DNA from: Dictyostelium discoideum
Taxonomy: Eukaryota
Reading direction: 5' to 3'
Length of the DNA: 64,000 bases
Assembly (NCBI GenBank): GCA_000004695.1
Contig: CM000150.2
Coordinates: 1,088,001 to 1,152,000, forward strand
Under the pieces are notes generated by a model. It searched no databases and was not told the origin of the DNA. It saw only the letters and a program-made list of their open reading frames with translations. A program made the position numbers and the translations under genes. This document shows, piece by piece, positions 1 through 8,937 of this stretch (positions are counted from its first letter, which is position 1; each line of letters begins with the position of its first letter).

Positions 1-397
1 CAAATCTTTATTACGCAACTTTAAAAGAGTCTGACTTTGAAAAGGGTACTATCGATTCAGTGACACCAACTGGTAGTATGCCTCTTGAGAGATGTCGTAT
101 CGATCAATCTCCTCATAGTACTAATAAAACTAATAGTTTCGAAGTTATTAGTGCTTTTCGTAGAAATATCCTCCTGGCAACTGATAAAGCTGATGATAAA
201 GATAAATGGATTAAAGCTATCGCCATTGCATCTGGTATGCAAATAGTTGAAGAGAAAGAATCAAATGAAGAAAAGAAAAGTTTACCAAGTTCTGAAGCAT
301 TACTTAATTCAAGAATAAGAGTAAAATCATTAAGAGCTCCACCAGTTGTCGTTGTACAACAACAAAAACAAAAGAAATTAGATGATAATGATGAATT

Positions 398-428
<31 letters not shown>

Positions 429-1019
429 GATAATAATAATAATGATGATGATGATGATGATGATGGTGGTGATAATGAAAATGGTGATAATTATAATTCA
501 AATGGTGATAATTCAAATGGTGATAATAGTAATAATCATAATAATAATGATGAAGGAGTAACAAATAGGAGATCTTCTGATCAATTAGAACAAATGACAG
601 CAACAAGAAGACCAAAAAAAGAAAGACAAATTAAAAAGATTTCAACTAATGATGTCTCAACATCAGAGAATCGTTACTTTTCTAAATTTAATTTACCTTC
701 CTCATCAAATGCTCCAGCACCAACTATAATCACATCAAAAGCAAAATATAGTTTAAATTTAAGTAGTGATACAAATAATAATACTGCATCAACATCAAAT
801 AATGATTCTAATGAACCTGAATCACTTGCTAATATTCTTGGTGATGATATGCCACCACCATCAAAGAAATATTCAATTAATGATGAAAATTCAACTAATT
901 ATCAAGATGATGATAAAGATTTAGAAAGTGCTGGTTTAATCTCTGGTAAAAAGAAAAAAGTAAATGAAGATGGTGAAGATGAAGATAAAAAGAGATGTTG
1001 TAAATGTACTATTCAATAA
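1..1019 (+). CDS. 3' part of a gene truncated by the window start: PH-domain C-terminal helix, N/D-rich low complexity, polybasic stretch and C-terminal CAAX prenylation box
   Basis: The frame is open from nt 3 (NLYYATLKESDFEKGTIDS...) into listed ORF 60..1019, whose first 'M' is GTG. FEVISAFRRNILLATDKADDKDKWIKAIAIASGMQ resembles the C-terminal amphipathic helix of a PH domain. The C-terminus GKKKKVNEDGEDEDKKRCCKCTIQ is polybasic plus CAAX (CTIQ). The poly-Asn/Asp tract is typical of this genome. Confidence 0.5.
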
Positions 1020-1028
1020 AACAAAATA

Positions 1029-1059
<31 letters not shown>

Positions 1060-1189
1060 CAAATAATATAAATTATATTAGTTTTATTTATGAAAATAAA
1101 AAAAAAAACAAATAAATAAAAAAAATAAATAATAATAATAGTAATAATAATAAATTTAAATAATTTTTAATTTATTTTCTTAAAATTTT

Positions 1190-2568
1190 TTAATTATTTT
1201 CAATAATTTTAATTGCTTTTTCTAAGGAATCATTTGAAAGATTTGAAGATATTTCAATACAACGATTTTTAAATTGTTGATAATTTGATTTAATTTTTAT
1301 AATTGAATCAAGTAATTGATTTTGTTTTAATTTTAAACCATTTAAACCAATACCAACACCAATTGAATTAATATGTTTTGACCAAAAAGGTTGATCAAAA
1401 TATAATGGTAAAATTATTGAAGGTATTGCTGATTTTAAAATACTTGCAATTGATCCAACTCCTCCATGTGTAATTGAAATTGAACTATATTTATATAACC
1501 ATAAATGATCAACATTGTTTAATTGACAAATATTTGCTGATTCATTTTGAATTGGTTCAAAATTACTCCAATTATTTAAAATTATCCATTTAGTTTGTTT
1601 ACCTAATTTTTCAATTGTGTATTTTAAAATTGAAATTATTTTATCTTGTAATGATTTATTTGAAATTGGCATACTGCCTAAACCAAATACAATTGGTAAA
1701 TCTTCTTTATCAGTATATTCATTAATATTATTATCTTTAAAAAAGTTTATTAACTTTTTTGGAATATTTTTTAAATTAATTTCTTTTTGAAAAAAGAAAC
1801 CAACTACATTCCAATGACTTTTAAAATCATTTGGTATTTTTTGATTTGGTAATAAAACTTTATCAAATGCTGCAATTTGTTTACAATATGATTCATTATT
1901 TCTAATATTATCAAAAAAATCAAATTTTAAACTATCTAATCCTAATTCTTTTCTCCAACGATCAACTCTTTTACATTCTCTAAAAAAAAAAAATTATTAA
2001 TATTAATTTAAACAATTTGTTTTAATAATTTATTTTAAACTTACAGTTTTGCAAATTTATTATTAAATAATGAATGGGTTAATTTATTAATAAATGGAAT
2101 ATGAAGGTTTTTAATATCAAATAATAGGAATGGTGCTTCATTGGTTGGAAAAATTGGGACCAATGTTAAAGCAATAAATGGAATACCTAATTTATCTCTA
2201 ACACATTGAGCTTCTGTTGGAATTACAGCTGATTGAATAATTAAATCCATACCAATTGATGATAAATAAAGTTGGTTTAATCTTCCAAGATTTTGTTTAT
2301 CCAATTCCATTCTTTTTTCAAAGAATCTACTCCCATACTCTTGAGGTGAATAAATTTTAGATTTATCTCCTTTTTGATTATCATTTAATAAATCAATAAT
2401 ATCACCATCAATTGCATTAAAATCTAATTCAAATTTTTCAACAACATATTTTATTCTATTTTCACCAACAATTAAACAATAATGACCTCTTTTTTTCAAT
2501 TCACTTGCTAAAATACATGATGGTTGTACATCACCTCTTGTTCCAAAACAAAAGAAAACTATTTTCAT
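1190..2568 (-). CDS. UDP-glycosyltransferase, GT1 family (MGT/sterol-glucosyltransferase-like), tandem copy A; 2 exons
   Basis: Exons 2568..2045 and 1979..1190 are joined by a 65-nt AT-rich intron (donor GTAAGT at 2044..2039, acceptor AG at 1981..1980); the last codon CT|A is split in phase 2. N-terminus MKIVFFCFGTRGDVQP is the GT28-type N-terminal motif. C-terminal THGGVGSIASIL...PLYFDQPFW is the UDP-sugar binding signature. About 438 aa. The listed 160-aa ORF is only the part after the first in-frame Met of exon 2. Confidence 0.75.
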
Positions 2569-3282
2569 TTTTTTTTTTTTTTTAAAATATGTTAGTTATT
2601 TAAAATTAGTTTTATGATCTTTTTTTAAATAAATATCTAAATTTGTTTATTAAATTAATAATGATTAAATTACCTTTTTTTTTTTTTTAATTTATATTTT
2701 TTTTTTAAGTATTAAATTTGAAAATCATAAAATTAAAACAATTCTTTTTTTATTTTCATTATTATTCTTTAAAACTAATGATATTTCTTGTTTGTATATA
2801 TAACACTGAGAAATGAAAAATATTATTTTTCATATTTTAATTTTATACTCTAAGAACAAACATATTTGATTTCCTTAAAAATTAAAAATCTTAAGAAAAT
2901 ATATCTTGGTTTCATATTTAAATGAAAAATAAAACTAAAAAGCACAGTGTGTTAATATATTTTTTTAATTTTAATTTTTTTTTTTGTTCTTTAAGATTAA
3001 AGAAAGTGGTTAAAAACCTTGGAAATTACTCAGCGTAATTTATAATTTTATATTTATTAATGAAGGTTAATTAATATCTCAAATTGAATAATCAAAAAGT
3101 AAAAAAAAATTTTTTTTTTAAATTAAAAAAAAAAAGTATTAATTTTATTTTTAATTAATTAATTAATTTATTTTTTTAATTATTTATTTATTTTTTTTTT
3201 TTTTCAAAAATTTAAAAATGGTGCTTGAAAATTTCAAGTAATTTTTACCAAATGTAATTTTAAAATTAACAAAGGGAAAGAA

Positions 3283-3504
3283 TCATTGAAAATAATGAGT
3301 TACAAACTTGAAACAACCTGTAGCAGAACCTGTTGTTGTTGATAGTTGAGATGGAGTTGGATTAGTGTTGGTGTTACTGTTGGTGTTGGTGTTGGTGTTT
3401 GTGATGGTGATGGTGTTGGTGTTGGTATTGGTGTTGGTATTGGTGTTGGTGTTAGTGATGGTGTTAGTGCTGGTGTTGGTGTTGGTGTGGCAATGATTAT
3501 ACAA
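3283..3504 (-). pseudogene. Truncated remnant of the GPI-anchored Thr/Pro-repeat protein gene (paralog of 5913..6419) with an expanded (ACA AAC)n = (TN)n hexamer array
   Basis: The 3' end ...[14 protein letters not shown] aligns with NPTPSQTSTTTGSAS of the intact copy. The signal peptide and Cys-rich domain are missing, replaced by AT-rich DNA after 3520. On the + strand the array reads as (GGTGTT)n at about 3361-3490. Confidence 0.45.
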
Positions 3505-3708
3505 ACTTCACCAAGTGCATGTAAAGTATATAAATATAATTATATAAATAAAATAATATTTTTAATAAAAAAAATAAAACCTATTTATATTAAAAAAAAA
3601 GAAATATTATAAATTATATTAATAATATATATGAAAATAAAAAAAAAATATATAATAATAGTTTTAATAAAAATGATAATAAATTAAATATAGTTTTCAA
3701 TTAATTTT

Positions 3709-5085
3709 TTAATTATTTTCAATGATTTTAATTGCTTTTTCTAAGGAATCATTTGAAAGATTTGAAGATATTTCAATACAACGATTTCTAAATTGTTGAT
3801 AGTTTGATTTAATTTTAATAATTGAATCAAGTAATTGATTTTGTTTTAATTTTAAACCATTTAAACCAATACCAACACCAATTGAATTAATATGTTTTGA
3901 CCAAAATGGTTGATCAAAATATAATGGTAAAATTATTGAAGGTATTGCTGATTTTAAAATACTTGCAATTGATCCAACTCCTCCATGTGTAATTGAAATT
4001 GAACTATATTTATATAACCATAAATGATCAACATTGTTTAATTGACAAATATTTGCTGATTCATTTTGAATTGGTTCAAAATTACTCCAATTATTTAAAA
4101 TTATCCATTTAGTTTGTTTACCTAATTTTTCAATTGTGTATTTTAAAATTGAAATAACATTCTTTTGTAATGATTTATTTGAAATTGGCATACTACCTAA
4201 ACCAAAAACAATTGGTAAATCTTCTTTTTCAGTGTATTCATTAATATTATTATCTTTAAAAAAGTTTATTAACTTTTCTGGAATATTTTTTAAATTAATT
4301 TCTTTTTGAAAAAAGAAACCAACTACATTCCAATGACTTTTAAAATCATTTGGTATTTTTTGATTTGGTAATAAAACTTTATCAAATGCTGCAATTTGTT
4401 TACAATATGATTCATTATTTCTAATATTATCAAAAAAATCAAATTTTAAACTATCCAATCCTAATTCTTTTCTCCAACGATCAACTCTTTTACATTCTCT
4501 AAAAAAAAAAACTATTAATATTAATTTAAACAATTTGTTTAATTATTTATTTTAAACTTACAGTTTTGCAAATTTATAATTAAATAATGTATGGGTTAAT
4601 TTATTAATAAATGGAATATGAAGGTTTTTAATATTAGATAATAAGAATGGTGCTTCATTAGATGGGAAAATTTGGAATAATGTTAAAGAAATAAATGGAA
4701 TACCTAATTTATCTCTAACACATTGAGCTTCTGTTGGAATAATATTCGATTGAATAATTAAATCCATACCAATTGATGATAGATAAAGTTGGTTTAATCT
4801 TCCAAGATTTTGTTTATCCAATTCCATTCTTTTTTCAAAGAATCTACGACTATATTCTCGAGGAGAATAAATTTTTAATTTATCTCCTTTTTCATCATCA
4901 TTTAATAAATCAATAATATCACCATCAATTGCATTAAAATCTAATTCAAAATTTTCAACAACATATTTTATTCTATTTTCACCAACAATTAAACAATAAT
5001 GACCTCTTTTTTTTAATTCACTTGCTAAAATACATAATGGTTGTACATCACCTCTTGTTCCAAAACAAAAGAAAACTATTTTCAT
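3709..5085 (-). CDS. UDP-glycosyltransferase, GT1 family, tandem copy B; 2 exons
   Basis: Exons 5085..4562 and 4498..3709; a 63-nt intron with GTAAGT donor (4561..) and AG acceptor at 4500..4499. About 90-95% identical to copy A at DNA and protein level, with the same motifs. Confidence 0.75.
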
Positions 5086-5607
5086 TTTTTTTTTTTTTTT
5101 TTTTTGTTGGTTCTATTTTTAAATTAATTTTAAAAAATCATAAAATTAAAAATATTCTTTTTTTTTATTTTCAAAATATTATTCTTTAAAAAAAATGATT
5201 TTTCTTGTTTGTTTATATATGGCCAGAAGAAATGAAAATTATCATTTTTCATTTTCACTTTGATTTCCTTAAAATTAAAAACCTTAAAAAATAAATCTTT
5301 GTTAAAATATAAAAAAAAAACCACACATTTGTGTTAAATTATAAAGGTTTGCCAGATATAAAAATTTCAACATTAATGTGGTGAAAAGTAATTTTATGTG
5401 GTTGGTCCTCTATTTTTTATTTTAATGTTTTTTTTTATATGAATCTCCCCTTGAATCTAACTTTTTTTTTTTTTTTTAATATTCATTAAGATTAATTAAT
5501 TTTTTTTTTTTTTATTTATCTTTAAAAAAAGTGGTTAAATACCTTGGAAATAAATACTCTGTAAAATTTACAATTAGATTTATTAATAAAGAAGATTAAT
5601 TTATCTC

Positions 5608-5738
5608 CACAGCAAAGAAATCCTGCTTAAATTTTGTTAAATGTATGATGTAATTTAAATGGTATTATAATGACGTAATAAATTAAATTGATAATATAAT
5701 TTAAATGGATAATTTACGGTGATATTTTCTTTGCAGTG
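5608..5738. mobile_element. Candidate ~131-bp MITE-like insertion with imperfect 13-14-bp terminal inverted repeats, present only in duplication unit B
   Basis: Left end CACAGCAAAGAAAT and right end ATTTTCTTTGCAGTG (reverse complement CACTGCAAAGAAAAT). Absent from the otherwise collinear site in unit A, which reads tatctc|aaattgaataa at about 3076-3090. A possible short CT(C) target duplication. Confidence 0.3.
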
Positions 5739-5912
5739 CTAAACTGAATAACCAAAACGTACAAAAATTTATTTTTAAATTAAAAAAGTTTTAATTTTAT
5801 TTTTTTTATTAATTAATTTATTTAATTATTTATTTAATTTTATTTTTTTTTGAAAAATTTAAAATTGTACTTGAAAATGCCAAATAATTTTTACCATTTG
5901 TTATTTTTAAAA

Positions 5913-6419
5913 TTAACAAAGGGAAAGAATCATTGAGAAAATAATGAGTGATAAACTTGCAACAACAGTTGAAGCAGAACCAGTTGTTGTTGATGTTTGG
6001 GATGGGGTTGGATTTGGTGTATTTGTTGGTGTTGGTGTTACTGTTGGTGTAACTGTTGGTGTAACTGTTGGTGTAACTGTTGGTGCGGGTGTGGCAGTGA
6101 TTTTACAAACTCCACTCCAATCAGAACCGAGTGCATGTGAAGAAGTTTGATCAGCGCAAGTAAATGTATTTGTTACAGCTGGTGTTACTTGAACAGTACA
6201 TTGGTTTGTAGTATATTCGGCAAAAGTGAATTGATTTGTATTGGTAGCATCAGGAATGTAACGGACAAATCTACCACAAACCTCAGTACAAACATTTTGT
6301 ATGACATCTACTGAAGCACAAACTGGATTTTGATTGGCCAATGTTGTTGTGAAATAATCATATGCATTTGCATATGTTAATAGTGATAATAATGCAATAA
6401 ATGTATGTTGGAATTTCAT
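5913..6419 (-). CDS. Small secreted Cys-rich protein with (TPTV)n Thr/Pro linker and GPI-anchor-like C-terminus
   Basis: ATG at 6419. N-terminal signal peptide MKFQHTFIALLSLLTYANA; about 10 Cys in the mature domain; TPTVTPTVTPTVTPTV repeat; C-terminal GSAS omega-like site followed by the hydrophobic tail VVASLSLIIFSMILSLC. Confidence 0.6.
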   Translation of the reverse strand: MKFQHTFIALLSLLTYANAYDYFTTTLANQNPVCASVDVIQNVCTEVCGRFVRYIPDATNTNQFTFAEYTTNQCTVQVTPAVTNTFTCADQTSSHALGSDWSGVCKITATPAPTVTPTVTPTVTPTVTPTPTNTPNPTPSQTSTTTGSASTVVASLSLIIFSMILSLC

Positions 6420-7712
6420 TTTTTTAATTTATATTTACAAAAAATAATATAATATTTTGGTTGTTTTTTTTTTTTTTTTTTTATAATTATTAAGAATTAT
6501 ATTAATAAAATAATAACATTAATTTAATATAAATAAAAATTGAACCTATTTATATAAAAAAAATAATAAAAAAAATAAAAAAAAAAATAAAAATAAATAT
6601 ATTTAAATAAATTTAATTTATATTTTACAATTTTACAGTGGGGTAACATAAGTTGTAACATTAATTTCAATGATAATAATTTAGTGGTTGTAAATTTGGA
6701 GTGCTCAGCAGTATGAATTTTTTTTTTTTTGTTATTGCTATTTGATATCAAGTACAAGTGTGGTAAAATGAGTTTTTTTTTTTTCTTGATTTTACAATAA
6801 AATTAAATTATTTTTATTATTTGTAAAAAAATAAAAAATGATACCATCATAGCATAATATATTATTTTTGTTTTTTTATTATAATTTTTTTTTTCCCAAA
6901 CCTATTTAAAGTTGTACAAAAATTAAAATTTTTGCCTTGTTGCTCAATTTATGATTTGAAATTTTTTGGTCATTCAATGAATAAAATGAATAAATTTATT
7001 ATTATTTGTTTTTTTATATTTTTTATTTTTTATTTTTACCTTCGGGTAAATTATGAAATGGGTGTATTTATAAATTAAATTATGAATGATAGCTTAAATA
7101 AAAATACTACCAACTTACAAAACTATAATTATAATTACCACACCACTGGATAGTATCAATTACAAGAATAAAAAAAATTAAATAAAACGTTAAAATAAAA
7201 AATTAATTTTCTATTTTATTATTTTTTTTTTTTATGTTTTCACATCCATATTATTATAAATTAATTTTAACCTCTCTAAAAATGCGAAATTAAATTAATC
7301 AAAAATAAAAATAAAAAATTAAATAAATAAATAAATTAATAAATAAAAAAATAAATAATAAATAAATAAAATTTAAACAATTTTTATTATTTATTATTTT
7401 TGATCATGATTTTCATACTATTATTATTTCCTATTATTATTATTATTATTATTTTTTTTTTTTTTAGTTTTTCTAATTTTTTTTTCTTTTTTTTAATTTT
7501 CTAAGGACCATTTCTTGCTCTGAGATCCTTTTTTTTTTTTTTCCTTTTTTTTTTTCCTTTTTTTTTTCTTTTTTTTTTTTTCCTTTTTTTTTTTTTTAAT
7601 TTTTATTTTTTTTTATTATCTTAAAGAAAAAAAGAACTTCAAAAAAAAGACCAAGAAAACCAATTGATCTATATTTCTACATTTTTCCTTTTACTTTTTT
7701 TTTTTTTTTTTT

Positions 7713-8937
7713 TCAGTCTGAATAATTGCTTCCAGAATCATTAAAATTAAAGTTGAAATTTAATTCATTTTCTAAATTAATTTTATCATCCTCTTCATCA
7801 ATATCACTTGAATCATCATTTTGTTTATTTCTATTTGATGATGGTAAAGAAGTTGAAGTTGTAGTTGTAGTTGTTGTAGTTGTGGTTGTTGTGACAGTAT
7901 TATTATTATTGATATTATTTTGGTCATTATCTAGTTCATCAAAAAAATGTTGATTTGAATGATTATACATACAATGTAAACCAAATTTACAATAACCTTG
8001 ATTTTCAAAATATTTACAAGGAATCTTTGATAATTTCATTTTGTACATATTAATCATTTGTTCTTTATCATCACCAACAACATAGATATCAGATGGAATG
8101 ATGAAATAGGAGACAGTTCTACAAGTTGGACATTTTCTAACATGTTGAATTTGTTCATGATTTCTAAATTGTTGATTATTATAACCACTACCACCACTAT
8201 TGAGAATTCCAATTGAATTGAAAATATCAATACTATCATTATTAGGATTAGTTGAAAAGAAAATAGTACTACCACCATTACTTAAAATATTATTAATACT
8301 ATTACTAATATTATTGATGGTGCTGTTGTTATTACTAGTACTATTATTGGCACTATATCTCCAACTTCTAATACAATTTAAACAAAATTTATGTTGACAA
8401 TGACTTAATAAACCAAACTTTTTACCACTATCTACGATTGATTCAAAACAAATTTCACATTCGTATTGTCTCATTGACTCATTTTGACGTAATAATTGAT
8501 TCTCTTGATTCAATAAACATTCAATATAGTGAGTTTGATTTTGTTCAATATTATCTGGTATTAACATGGCTTTATTACAAATGTCACATAGATTACCATG
8601 AATGTATCTACAATCATCACCATTCCTACAATATCCTTTTCTTGAAAAAAAAAAACAAATGTTTTGTTCCTTGCTTATATTGTTATTGTTATTTTTATTA
8701 TTAATTTGTTGATGTTGATTATTGCATTGATTACTACTATGTTCATCTATTTTTGGAAAAATTATTAATCGTCAATAAAAATAAAAAATAGAAATTGGGT
8801 CCAAAAAAAAAAAAAATAAAAAAAAAAAAATAAAAAAATAAAAAAAAAAAAATAAAAAAAAAAAAATAAAAACCAAAAAAATAATTACCGGGTACCGCCT
8901 TGAGAATTGATCCATAAAATTTAATACCTGAAGACAT
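7713..8937 (-). CDS. Makorin-type zinc-finger protein (CCCH - RING C3HC4 - CCCH); 2 exons
   Basis: Exon 1 is 8937..8889 (MSSGIKFYGSILKAVP, donor G|GTAATT). Exon 2 is 8746..7713 (acceptor AG at 8748..8747), in phase. Exon 2 encodes the CCCH finger CFFFSRKGYCRNGDDCRYIH, the RING CEICFESIV...HCQHKFCLNCIRSW...CPTCR, and a second CCCH CKYFENQGYCKFGLHCMYNH. This order matches makorins. Confidence 0.6.

Follow-up and report, generated by a model that had tools for sequence, protein, structure and literature searches.

Gene conversion keeps two tandem glycosyltransferase genes alike in a probable old duplication of Dictyostelium discoideum

Two adjacent glycosyltransferase genes, GT1 and GT2, in the 64,000-nucleotide window of Dictyostelium discoideum (AX4/AX2-type sequence) analysed here are tandem duplicates under concerted evolution by interlocus gene conversion, a textbook case. 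The locus as a whole very probably arose long ago in the D. discoideum clade as a tandem segmental duplication of about 2.9 kb, in which the glycosyltransferases have been kept alike by conversion and one passenger gene has decayed.

Organization of the duplicated locus

Self-BLAST, pairwise alignment and alignment of the junction delimited two units in direct orientation, both on the minus strand, between a zf-CCCH/RING gene on one side and a PH/C2/TPR gene on the other. Unit 1 (1051-3591, 2541 nt), beside the PH-domain gene, comprises GT1, an intergenic/promoter region of ancestral type and the relic of a small gene. Unit 2 (3592 to about 6563, ~2970 nt) comprises GT2, a diverged intergenic region with insertions of its own, and an intact small gene together with about 145 bp upstream of it. 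These lengths bear out the two direct units of about 2.5-2.9 kb described in a sequence-only reading of the window, and its proposal that a gene pair (a glycosyltransferase and a small Cys/Thr-Pro surface protein) was duplicated in tandem is supported.

By self-BLAST, positions 1051-2614 match 3592-5132 at 93.3% over 1568 nt, followed by weaker colinear blocks at 2675-2929 versus 5087-5320 (73%), 2971-3080 versus 5496-5607 (79%) and 3081-3446 versus 5741-6092 (80%). The intergenic regions, presumed to be the promoters of GT1 (2569-3265, minus strand, ancestral type) and GT2 (5086-5912, minus strand), are distinguished by insertions specific to unit 2 at about 5320-5500 and 5608-5740. Beyond the relic, a remnant of small-gene upstream sequence (3529-3601, minus strand) was recognized by the alignment of 3529-3598 to 6482-6563, with a local alignment score of 78 that was equalled by none of 300 shuffles. 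This remnant, which flags an internal deletion of about 340 bp, runs into the duplication junction, located in an A-run at about 3592-3601. An artefactual duplication of contigs is ruled out, since the units differ by 4-21% and the two-unit structure recurs in independent assemblies: L009 is 100% identical across 8568 bp, and L003 and L011 also contain both units.

Two intact sterol-glucosyltransferase-like genes

GT1 (DDB_G0268540; 1190-2568, minus strand) consists of exon 1 (2568-2045), a 65-nt GT..AG intron (2044-1980) and exon 2 (1979-1190), and GT2 (DDB_G0268544; 3709-5085, minus strand) of exon 1 (5085-4562), a 63-nt intron (4561-4499) and exon 2 (4498-3709). As anticipated from the sequence, each unit carries an intact two-exon GT1-family gene with a conserved intron (96.8% identity): both frames are open over 437 amino acids, and the proteins exactly match AX4 XP_647403 (GT1) and XP_647405 (GT2). 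The two coding sequences differ at 47 of 1311 nucleotides (96.4% identity) and the proteins at 24 of 437 residues (94.5%). With a dN/dS of 0.31 between the paralogues and both ORFs intact in three isolates, the two genes have stayed open under purifying selection. Private changes are more numerous in GT2 (30, of which 12 synonymous and 18 nonsynonymous) than in GT1 (6), making GT2 the faster-changing copy. This excess is not cleanly accounted for by relaxed selection or by conversion in simple form; among the changes are old unit-2-type alleles that fragments from ACTFIY also carry.

Pfam searches passed the curated thresholds for PF03033 (31.7 bits, cut-off 26.2) and PF00201 (23.6 bits, cut-off 19.5), with PF06722 and PF04101 marginally under theirs. 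The yeast UGT51 structures 5GL5 and 5XVM match at E~1e-26 across residues 5-436, and the N-terminal G-[ST]-RGDVQP and donor-binding C-terminal HGGxG...P...DQxFW motifs are present and identical in both proteins. Beyond Dictyostelia, bacterial YjiC/MGT-type enzymes come closest, with about 25% identity. These matches place GT1 and GT2 as predicted sterol-glucosyltransferase-like members of the CAZy GT1/UDP-glycosyltransferase family and suggest a role as putative UDP-sugar:sterol-like glycosyltransferases. They resemble the catalytic domain of sterol 3-beta-glucosyltransferase (yeast UGT51/Atg26) in their full-length alignment, both motifs and the PF03033 plus PF00201 match, but the yeast enzyme also has GRAM/PH targeting domains, whereas the Dictyostelium proteins consist of the catalytic domain only.

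A ponticulin-like passenger gene and its relic

The intact small gene (5913-6419, minus strand) encodes a ponticulin-like protein of 168 amino acids and is annotated as a 168-aa gene in L009. Its product displays a signal-peptide-like N-terminus, a Cys-containing domain, a (TVTP)n/TP repeat, a small-residue stretch and a hydrophobic, GPI-signal-like tail. Read by eye, the N-terminus is MKFQHTFIALLSLLTYANA followed by Y, and at the C-terminus ...TTTGSAS precedes the 17 hydrophobic residues VVASLSLIIFSMILSLC. Similarity to PonH (P0133; E=1.9e-12 database-wide; 35% identity over 96 aa, E=3e-6, by pairwise BLASTP) is weak but significant and extends over no more than about 52% of the query. A Pfam search of the protein returned no family match, and the gene evolves fast (dN/dS of 0.35-0.6 versus sister species). 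The similarity of the Cys domain, weak but significant, points to membership of the Dictyostelium ponticulin-like family. The product may be a GPI-anchored ponticulin-like protein. The small size, Cys-containing domain, signal-peptide-like N-terminus, Thr/Pro-rich linker and hydrophobic C-terminal tail are shared with the D. discoideum proteins PonA, PonC1-5 and PonH; the weak, partial PonH match, the lack of a Pfam match and the fast evolution set it apart. PonC is described as a small actin-binding protein associated with the plasma membrane that resembles ponticulin, and only PonC and ponticulin are known to bind or nucleate actin at that membrane (PMC4920372).

The unit 1 copy of this gene is a pseudogene made by duplication, with a functional paralogue, disabling lesions and no usable ORF. 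The relic (3266-3527, minus strand), identified from translations and a multi-genome alignment, is homologous to codons 94-168 plus the stop. Codons 1-93 are missing together with about 62 bp upstream of them, a 5′ deletion of about 340 bp that truncates the relic at HALG, which also carries a 12-nt deletion, a 5-nt insertion (about 3364-3368), a TCA>TAA premature stop (3300-3302) and two 2-nt deletions in the tail. No ATG is found in either relevant frame or in the ORF at 3283-3504. The relic is absent from the gene annotation of L009, and searching the literature for the DDB_G identifiers yielded no reports. The truncation, frameshifts, premature stop and missing ATG confirm the proposed pseudogenisation of one passenger gene. 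The same proposal held that the signal peptide and Cys domain were lost and only the tail was left; this is right for the signal peptide, but the Cys domain, though mostly gone, keeps its last residues.

The hexamer array of the relic (3365-3488, minus strand; TRF period 6) had been described as an (ACA AAC)n (TN)n expansion. It is instead an (ACACCA)n repeat, the ancestral Thr-Pro array read in a shifted frame: the ancestral frame still translates as Thr-Pro, and the Thr-Asn frame of ORF 3283-3504 connects to the tail via the 5-nt insertion. With 124 nt and 20.7 copies, the array is longer than that of the intact gene, where a 12-mer is repeated 4.7 times. The functional homologue next to it, the truncation, frameshifts and premature stop, and a repeat free to expand are those of a duplicated pseudogene with a drifting microsatellite; it differs from that type in lying within the upstream region of functional GT1 and in the retention of its 3′ part in several lineages.

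A single origin followed by copy-number change

Comparison with related genomes, in part by tblastn, revealed a single unit with conserved synteny in the D. citrinum (L001), D. firmibasis (L002), D. dimigraforme (L010) and D. cf. discoideum (L007) assemblies, two units with the relic in L003, L011 and L009, and the relic beside a GT1-type copy plus additional fragments in L005 and L006. Three D. discoideum isolates have both units, and one cryptic lineage, like D. citrinum, D. dimigraforme and D. firmibasis, has one. In the multi-genome alignment, the 5-nt insertion and premature TAA are common to the AX4, ACTFIW and ACTFIY relics, and the AX4 and ACTFIW relics further agree in their 5′ breakpoint, the 12-nt deletion and one 2-nt deletion, the two genomes being colinear over 7 kb including the junction. 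Because the relics share these lesions and this breakpoint, the duplication arose once. AX4 has the duplication, the insertion and the stop in common with two wild isolates of D. discoideum and with one cryptic sister lineage. The event took place once D. citrinum and D. dimigraforme had branched off but before the lineages of the D. discoideum clade separated. Comparative data show directly that gene conversion and copy-number change both occur at the locus, as the sequence-only reading had suggested for conversion: the homology behind it also makes the number of units vary among sister lineages, which have one unit or several with fragments.

Unconverted flanks date the duplication

The flanking promoter/intergenic DNA has not been converted and preserves the true age of the duplication. 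Intergenic identity is 78.6% between units 1 and 2, against 93-95% between orthologous regions of AX4 and ACTFIW; compared with the unit 1 region, identity is 85% for the single-unit cryptic lineage and 73% for D. citrinum. Since both units are equidistant from D. citrinum (73.1% identity for unit 1, 72.7% for unit 2), the difference between them is not simply a matter of fast evolution in unit 2. A neighbor-joining tree of p-distances over 345 gap-free columns, in an AT-rich alignment that is error-prone, places unit 2 outside the group formed by the unit 1 sequences and the single-unit lineage with 100% bootstrap, and pairs the orthologous unit 1 and unit 2 sequences at 99-100%. This topology suggests that the single-unit cryptic lineage (ACTFIZ) may represent a secondary collapse of the duplication.

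The sequence-only reading had called the duplication recent. If it took place shortly before or within D. discoideum, the ~96% identity would reflect little time, and the intergenic parts would have diverged fast through indels and slippage; the CDS and intron identities, a GT1/GT2 dS of only 0.084 and the one copy in D. citrinum, D. dimigraforme and D. firmibasis agree with such a scenario. It is nonetheless very unlikely and already largely refuted. Flanking single-copy genes differ by a dS of 0.05-0.15 within the clade, and the relic lesions are shared with ACTFIY, whose flanking genes differ from AX4 by 0.09-0.13, equal to or above the GT1/GT2 divergence. The intergenic tree puts the split between the units before the divergence of single-unit ACTFIZ, the genic and flanking trees conflict, and the relation of paralogue to orthologue dS given below is impossible without conversion. 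The high identity of the glycosyltransferase copies (94-98%) is therefore a product of homogenisation and no sign that they are young.

Homogenisation of the glycosyltransferase genes

The paralogue dS of 0.084 (0.064 for exon 2) lies below the values of 0.106 and 0.20 for positional orthologues; since the duplication is shared, gene conversion is required. Analysis of informative sites between AX4 and ACTFIW revealed 18 with a concerted pattern, 7 orthologous and 1 crossed, and between AX4 and ACTFIR 21 concerted, 7 orthologous and none crossed, for an overall split of 17-21 concerted to 7 orthologous; the concerted sites include intron and synonymous positions. Between two closely related wild isolates the split is reversed, with 2 concerted versus 22 orthologous sites. 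The tree of the intron and exon 2 groups AX4 GT1 with AX4 GT2 at 99% and all four wild-isolate copies together at 94%; the exon 1 tree is poorly resolved (bootstraps of 24-56%), which blurs how far conversion reaches at the 5′ end. Interlocus gene conversion has thus repeatedly homogenised the coding block of 1.4 kb, most of all its intron and exon 2, and has done so independently in the AX4 lineage and in that of the two wild isolates. The most recent tract, a 100% identical alignment block at 1405-1634 on the GT1 side and about 3924-4153 on the GT2 side (minus strand), spans 43 consecutive sites that vary elsewhere without a difference between GT1 and GT2. In a Sawyer-type run-length permutation test, this concordant run gave p=0.002 for AX4; the value for ACTFIW was p=0.049.

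Purifying selection graded along the unit could by itself yield 98% identity in exon 2, 94% in exon 1 and 79% in the flanks, and in keeping with this, exon 2 specifies the conserved half of the GT-B enzyme that binds the nucleotide sugar, and exon 1 holds 18 of the 24 amino-acid differences (binomial p=0.0005). Selection alone is a highly improbable explanation, as at synonymous and intron positions it has no means of making paralogues more similar to each other than orthologues are; dS divided by intergenic distance is at least 1 for orthologues and about 0.4 for paralogues, and both the lineage-wise grouping and the 43-site run are conditioned on sites that vary elsewhere. That the unit was duplicated independently in the AX4 and wild-isolate lineages, as the lineage-wise clustering of exon 2 and the readiness of the locus to rearrange might suggest, would make gene conversion unnecessary, but it is extremely unlikely given the agreement of the AX4 and ACTFIW relics in breakpoint, deletions, insertion and stop codon, the colinearity of the two genomes, the positional-orthologue clades of the intergenic sequences and the seven orthologous-pattern sites that persist in the glycosyltransferase genes.

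Evolution of the locus

Under an old duplication with conversion, the ancestral unit would have been a small ponticulin-like surface-protein gene followed by a sterol-glucosyltransferase-like GT1 gene, and unequal crossing-over or replication slippage at A/T-rich microhomology may have duplicated it. Early on, the 5-nt insertion and the TCA>TAA stop put out of action the small-gene copy that lies between GT1 and GT2; this copy later lost about 340 bp, comprising its promoter, its signal peptide and the greater part of the Cys domain, and its Thr-Pro microsatellite then drifted through slippage.

The primate gamma-globin pair is the classic example of concerted evolution in which unconverted flanks date the true age. 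As in that pair, two adjacent direct copies have a coding block homogenised within each lineage, flanks that give the positional-orthologue tree and mosaic conversion tracts detectable by a run test. Unlike it, the host is an amoebozoan genome of 78% A+T, the converted block is only about 1.4 kb, corresponding nearly exactly to the CDS plus the 65-nt intron, and the second gene of the unit escaped conversion and decayed. The GT1 and GT2 copies appear young only because they have overwritten each other by gene conversion.

Organization of the duplicated locus

The D. discoideum genome is famous for its tandem duplicates and simple repeats. In the window, whose G+C content is 21%, self-BLAST and pairwise alignment bore out the two direct units described by the sequence-only reading, unit 1 (1051-3591) and unit 2 (3592 to about 6563). 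Self-BLAST paired 1051-2614 with 3592-5132 (93.3% over 1568 nt) and returned three weaker colinear blocks (73-80%) spanning the intergenic DNA and the small gene's 3′ end. Local alignment also paired 3529-3598 with 6482-6563, which places the right edge of the repeat at about 6563 and the unit junction in an A-run at about 3592-3601. Read in gene orientation, the minus strand carries a zf-CCCH/RING gene (8567-7713), the small gene (6419-5913), the glycosyltransferase gene GT2 (5085-3709), the relic of the small gene (3527-3266) and the second glycosyltransferase gene, GT1 (2568-1190). A convergent PH/C2/TPR gene on the plus strand, with its 3′ end at 1019, adjoins the GT1 side. Positions 1-8568 are 100% identical to a second D. 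discoideum assembly (GCA_054883475.1, L009 contig). An assembly artefact, in which duplicate contigs would mimic a repeat, was rejected because many sites distinguish the units and four assemblies give the same picture. The Rfam scan of the whole window gave 0 families at threshold, so the units are without a known RNA gene, and a literature search with the four DDB_G identifiers found no papers.

Several features of the surrounding sequence were recorded. An AX4 (reference strain) gene model numbered DDB_G0268542 sits between the two glycosyltransferase genes. An insert of about 130 bp (5608-5740), ending in a 13-bp imperfect inverted repeat (CACAGCAAAGAAA ... TTTCTTTGCAGTG), is found only in unit 2; L003 and L011 have it at their orthologous unit 2 position (about 90%), L005 has part of it, and unit 1 and the single-unit species lack it. 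The insert had no Rfam match, and a structured RNA was rejected, the fold z being only -1.1 and not better than shuffles. A MITE was likewise rejected, as the window has no further copy of the insert and the other loci carry it only at the orthologous unit 2 positions. The 3′ exon of the PH/C2/TPR gene (3-1019, plus strand) ends in ...KKRCCKCTIQ*, where a CaaX-like box follows a polybasic, cysteine-containing stretch, and this C-terminal sequence suggests lipid modification of the protein. The ORF (exon) at 7713-8567 (minus strand) contains a poly-Thr run, and orthologous gene calls match zf-CCCH and RING (C3HC4) in a makorin-like architecture; its synteny is kept in all group 4 genomes examined except D. 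purpureum (L008).

Two intact glycosyltransferase genes

The predicted GT1 and GT2 proteins match exactly D. discoideum AX4 XP_647403 (DDB_G0268540) and XP_647405 (DDB_G0268544). As the sequence-only reading had it, each unit holds an intact two-exon gene with a conserved intron: both gene models encode an open 437 aa, and the GT..AG introns (65 and 63 nt) share the same phase. GT1 and GT2 are separated by 47 differences in 1311 coding nucleotides and 24 in 437 residues. The protein exceeds the Pfam thresholds for PF03033 and PF00201 and aligns full-length with the catalytic domain of the yeast sterol 3-beta-glucosyltransferase UGT51 (5XVM, 5GL5; E~1e-26), including the GxRGDVQP and HGGxG…DQ motifs, while its nearest relatives outside Dictyostelia are bacterial YjiC/MGT-type enzymes at about 25% identity. 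The overall dN/dS between GT1 and GT2 is 0.31. Both enzymes probably function, since both ORFs are intact in three isolates. Of the D. cf. discoideum genomes, ACTFIY has unit-2-type copies only as fragments and ACTFIZ lacks them at the locus, which suggests that GT2 is dispensable there.

The small gene and its relic

The small gene encodes a 168-aa protein that matches ponticulin-like protein H at E=1.9e-12 in a database-wide search, with 35% of residues identical across the Cys-containing domain. Its N-terminus resembles a signal peptide and its C-terminus a GPI signal. Pfam gave no meaningful match to the protein, and an exact look-up did not find it in the protein collection; the same 168-aa gene is called in the L009 annotation, where nothing is called at the relic. 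Compared with L007, L001 and L002, the intact gene (5913-6419) evolves much faster than its neighbors; its dN/dS is about 0.6 relative to ACTFIZ and 0.35 relative to D. citrinum, to which the protein is 61-65% identical. Every genome has a Thr-Pro repeat of its own unit and length.

The loss of this passenger gene from the upstream unit, also proposed from sequence, was confirmed by a truncation, a frameshift, a stop and the absence of an ATG in either relic frame. About 340 bp are missing, namely codons 1-93 and 62 bp of upstream sequence. In the translated relic (3230-3560, minus strand) the ancestral frame is still readable, the intact gene reading ...HALGSDWSGVCKITATPAPTVTPTVTP... there. 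The relic repeat is the homologous Thr-Pro array, (ACACCA)n, and the "(TN)n" hexamer proposed for ORF 3283-3504 is a different frame of the same DNA. The relic array is longer and simpler than the intact repeat, a 6-mer in 20.7 copies against a 12-mer encoding TVTP in 4.7 copies. A 5-nt insertion just upstream of the NPTPSQ.STTTGSA tail joins the two relic frames; the relic has also lost 12 nt at one site and a short stretch at each of two others, and TCA>TAA creates a stop in its hydrophobic tail. Annotators should not call ORF 3283-3504 a gene.

Copy number in related genomes

The comparison set includes Nanopore/Illumina assemblies of D. discoideum-clade isolates (PMC12745789), together with earlier D. 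firmibasis and D. purpureum assemblies. The order PI3K, zf-CCCH/RING, small gene, glycosyltransferase, PH/C2/TPR is kept throughout, and single-unit, two-unit and fragmented states were all found. A single unit is present in D. citrinum (L001), D. firmibasis (L002), D. dimigraforme (L010) and ACTFIZ (L007). The D. discoideum wild isolates ACTFIW (L003) and ACTFIR (L011) carry two units and the relic, colinear with the window at about 92% over 7 kb. In ACTFIY (L005, L006) the relic adjoins a GT1-type copy, and several truncated or inverted glycosyltransferase fragments are accompanied by inserted genes. Copy number at the locus varies across the D. discoideum species complex.

The expanded ACTFIY locus (L005 10001-16900 and L006 8258-11383, one contig) retains an intact small gene. 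Its glycosyltransferase fragments lie in both orientations (aa 282-325 inverted, 325-437, 57-437, 1-153 and 120-408), among several other called genes and a YqaJ-domain gene at the locus edge; the relic and the full GT1-type copy come after the fragments and inserted genes. ACTFIZ also has a dispersed glycosyltransferase copy of about 1.9 kb in an unrelated genomic context (L004 9790-11562), with a raised dN/dS of 0.4-0.5. This copy extends about 200 bp upstream and takes in about 90 bp from the 3′ end of the PH-domain gene, which identifies the unit adjoining that gene as its source. D. purpureum has its own tandem pair of this family (L008 4208-5672 and 6041-7547), whose proteins are about 47% identical and which reach 85% nucleotide identity over one 306-bp patch. 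Both copies fall within a single public gene call (435 aa, 4208-7574), which may be a merged model.

Age of the duplication

The main points of the sequence-only description stood, with a smaller correction to the repeat frame and a larger one to the age, since the duplication is not recent. The 5-nt insertion and the premature TAA are common to the AX4, ACTFIW and ACTFIY relics, and the 5′ breakpoint and two deletions recur in those of AX4 and ACTFIW. Both the duplication and the earliest disabling lesions are therefore older than the divergence of these three lineages. From the small gene (or relic) to the glycosyltransferase start codon, units 1 and 2 are 78.6% identical, against orthologous identities of 93-95% between AX4 and ACTFIW, 85% between unit 1 and ACTFIZ or ACTFIY, and 73% to D. 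citrinum. In the NJ tree of this intergenic DNA (345 gap-free columns), orthologous units pair at 99-100% bootstrap, and all unit 1 sequences cluster with the single-unit ACTFIZ sequence at 100%, leaving unit 2 outside. Fast evolution alone does not explain the position of unit 2, because the two units are equally distant from D. citrinum (73.1% and 72.7%). Together, the tree, the identities and the shared lesions place the duplication after the D. citrinum split and before the radiation of the D. discoideum clade. Independent duplications were rejected as an explanation, and the single unit of ACTFIZ is most simply a secondary collapse.

Gene conversion between GT1 and GT2

Given a shared duplication, paralogues closer to each other than to their positional orthologues imply sequence exchange between them. 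The dS between GT1 and GT2 is 0.084 (0.064 in exon 2), against 0.106 for GT1 and 0.20 for GT2 relative to their ACTFIW orthologues; flanking single-copy genes gave 0.05-0.10 for ACTFIW, 0.09-0.13 for ACTFIY, 0.10-0.15 for ACTFIZ and 0.22-0.40 for D. citrinum. For orthologues, glycosyltransferase dS is at least the intergenic distance, but for paralogues it is only about 0.4 of it. Selection alone, the rival explanation for this similarity, was rejected.

Parsimony-informative sites among the four copies of AX4 and ACTFIW comprised 18 concerted, 7 orthologous and 1 crossed; the same counts were 21:7:0 for AX4 and ACTFIR and 2:22:1 for the closely related wild isolates ACTFIW and ACTFIR. These splits indicate that conversion took place separately in the AX4 lineage and in the ancestor that the two wild isolates share, and that it is not detectable since these isolates separated. 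The sequence-only suspicion of a conversion site is supported. In bootstrapped segment trees, computed with a NumPy implementation, the intron and exon 2 grouped AX4 GT1 with AX4 GT2 at 99% and the four wild-isolate copies at 94%; the exon 1 tree was unresolved. A run-length permutation test on the sites varying in the seven-sequence set found 43 consecutive sites without a GT1/GT2 difference in AX4 (p=0.002), spanning CDS-plus-intron 935-1164 (window 1405-1634 and about 3924-4153), and gave p=0.049 in ACTFIW. Most of the surviving orthologous-pattern sites fall within the 5′ 450 nt, and a small group of them is at 924-929. Population or expression analyses should regard DDB_G0268540 and DDB_G0268544 as a converting pair, since the copies are identical over about 250 bp and short reads from there will cross-map.

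Asymmetry and possible functional divergence

Private changes in AX4 number 30 in GT2 against 6 in the copy adjoining the PH-domain gene (p=7e-5), and in ACTFIW 28 in the GT2 orthologue against 11 (p=0.009), synonymous and nonsynonymous changes alike. Some GT2 states are common to the unit-2-type fragments of ACTFIY, so that the asymmetry is partly old paralogue-specific variation, preserved in one lineage and overwritten in the other.

In GT-B enzymes, the N-terminal half forms most of the acceptor site and the C-terminal half binds the donor. It is conceivable, though improbable, that GT1 and GT2 are diverging in function, with conversion tolerated only where harmless. Such a reading may draw on the 18 of 24 amino-acid differences in exon 1, the N-terminal half (p=0.0005), the donor-binding C-terminal half being kept identical by conversion; on the presumed promoters, 79% identical and with unit-2-specific insertions; and on private changes about five times faster in GT2 than in GT1. 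If true, selection would shield a new GT2 acceptor specificity or expression pattern from homogenization, and the pair would illustrate in nature, on a small scale, how individual domains escape concerted evolution.

Implications

The locus is a tandem duplication with one decayed passenger and a retained pair under concerted evolution. The finding is real and well described, the phenomenon is an ordinary one, and general views are left unchanged. The locus offers a clean, well-bounded example of how tandem paralogue similarity misleads on age, coding identity being off as a clock by roughly threefold here, and it shows interlocus gene conversion acting on kilobase-scale duplicates in Dictyostelium.
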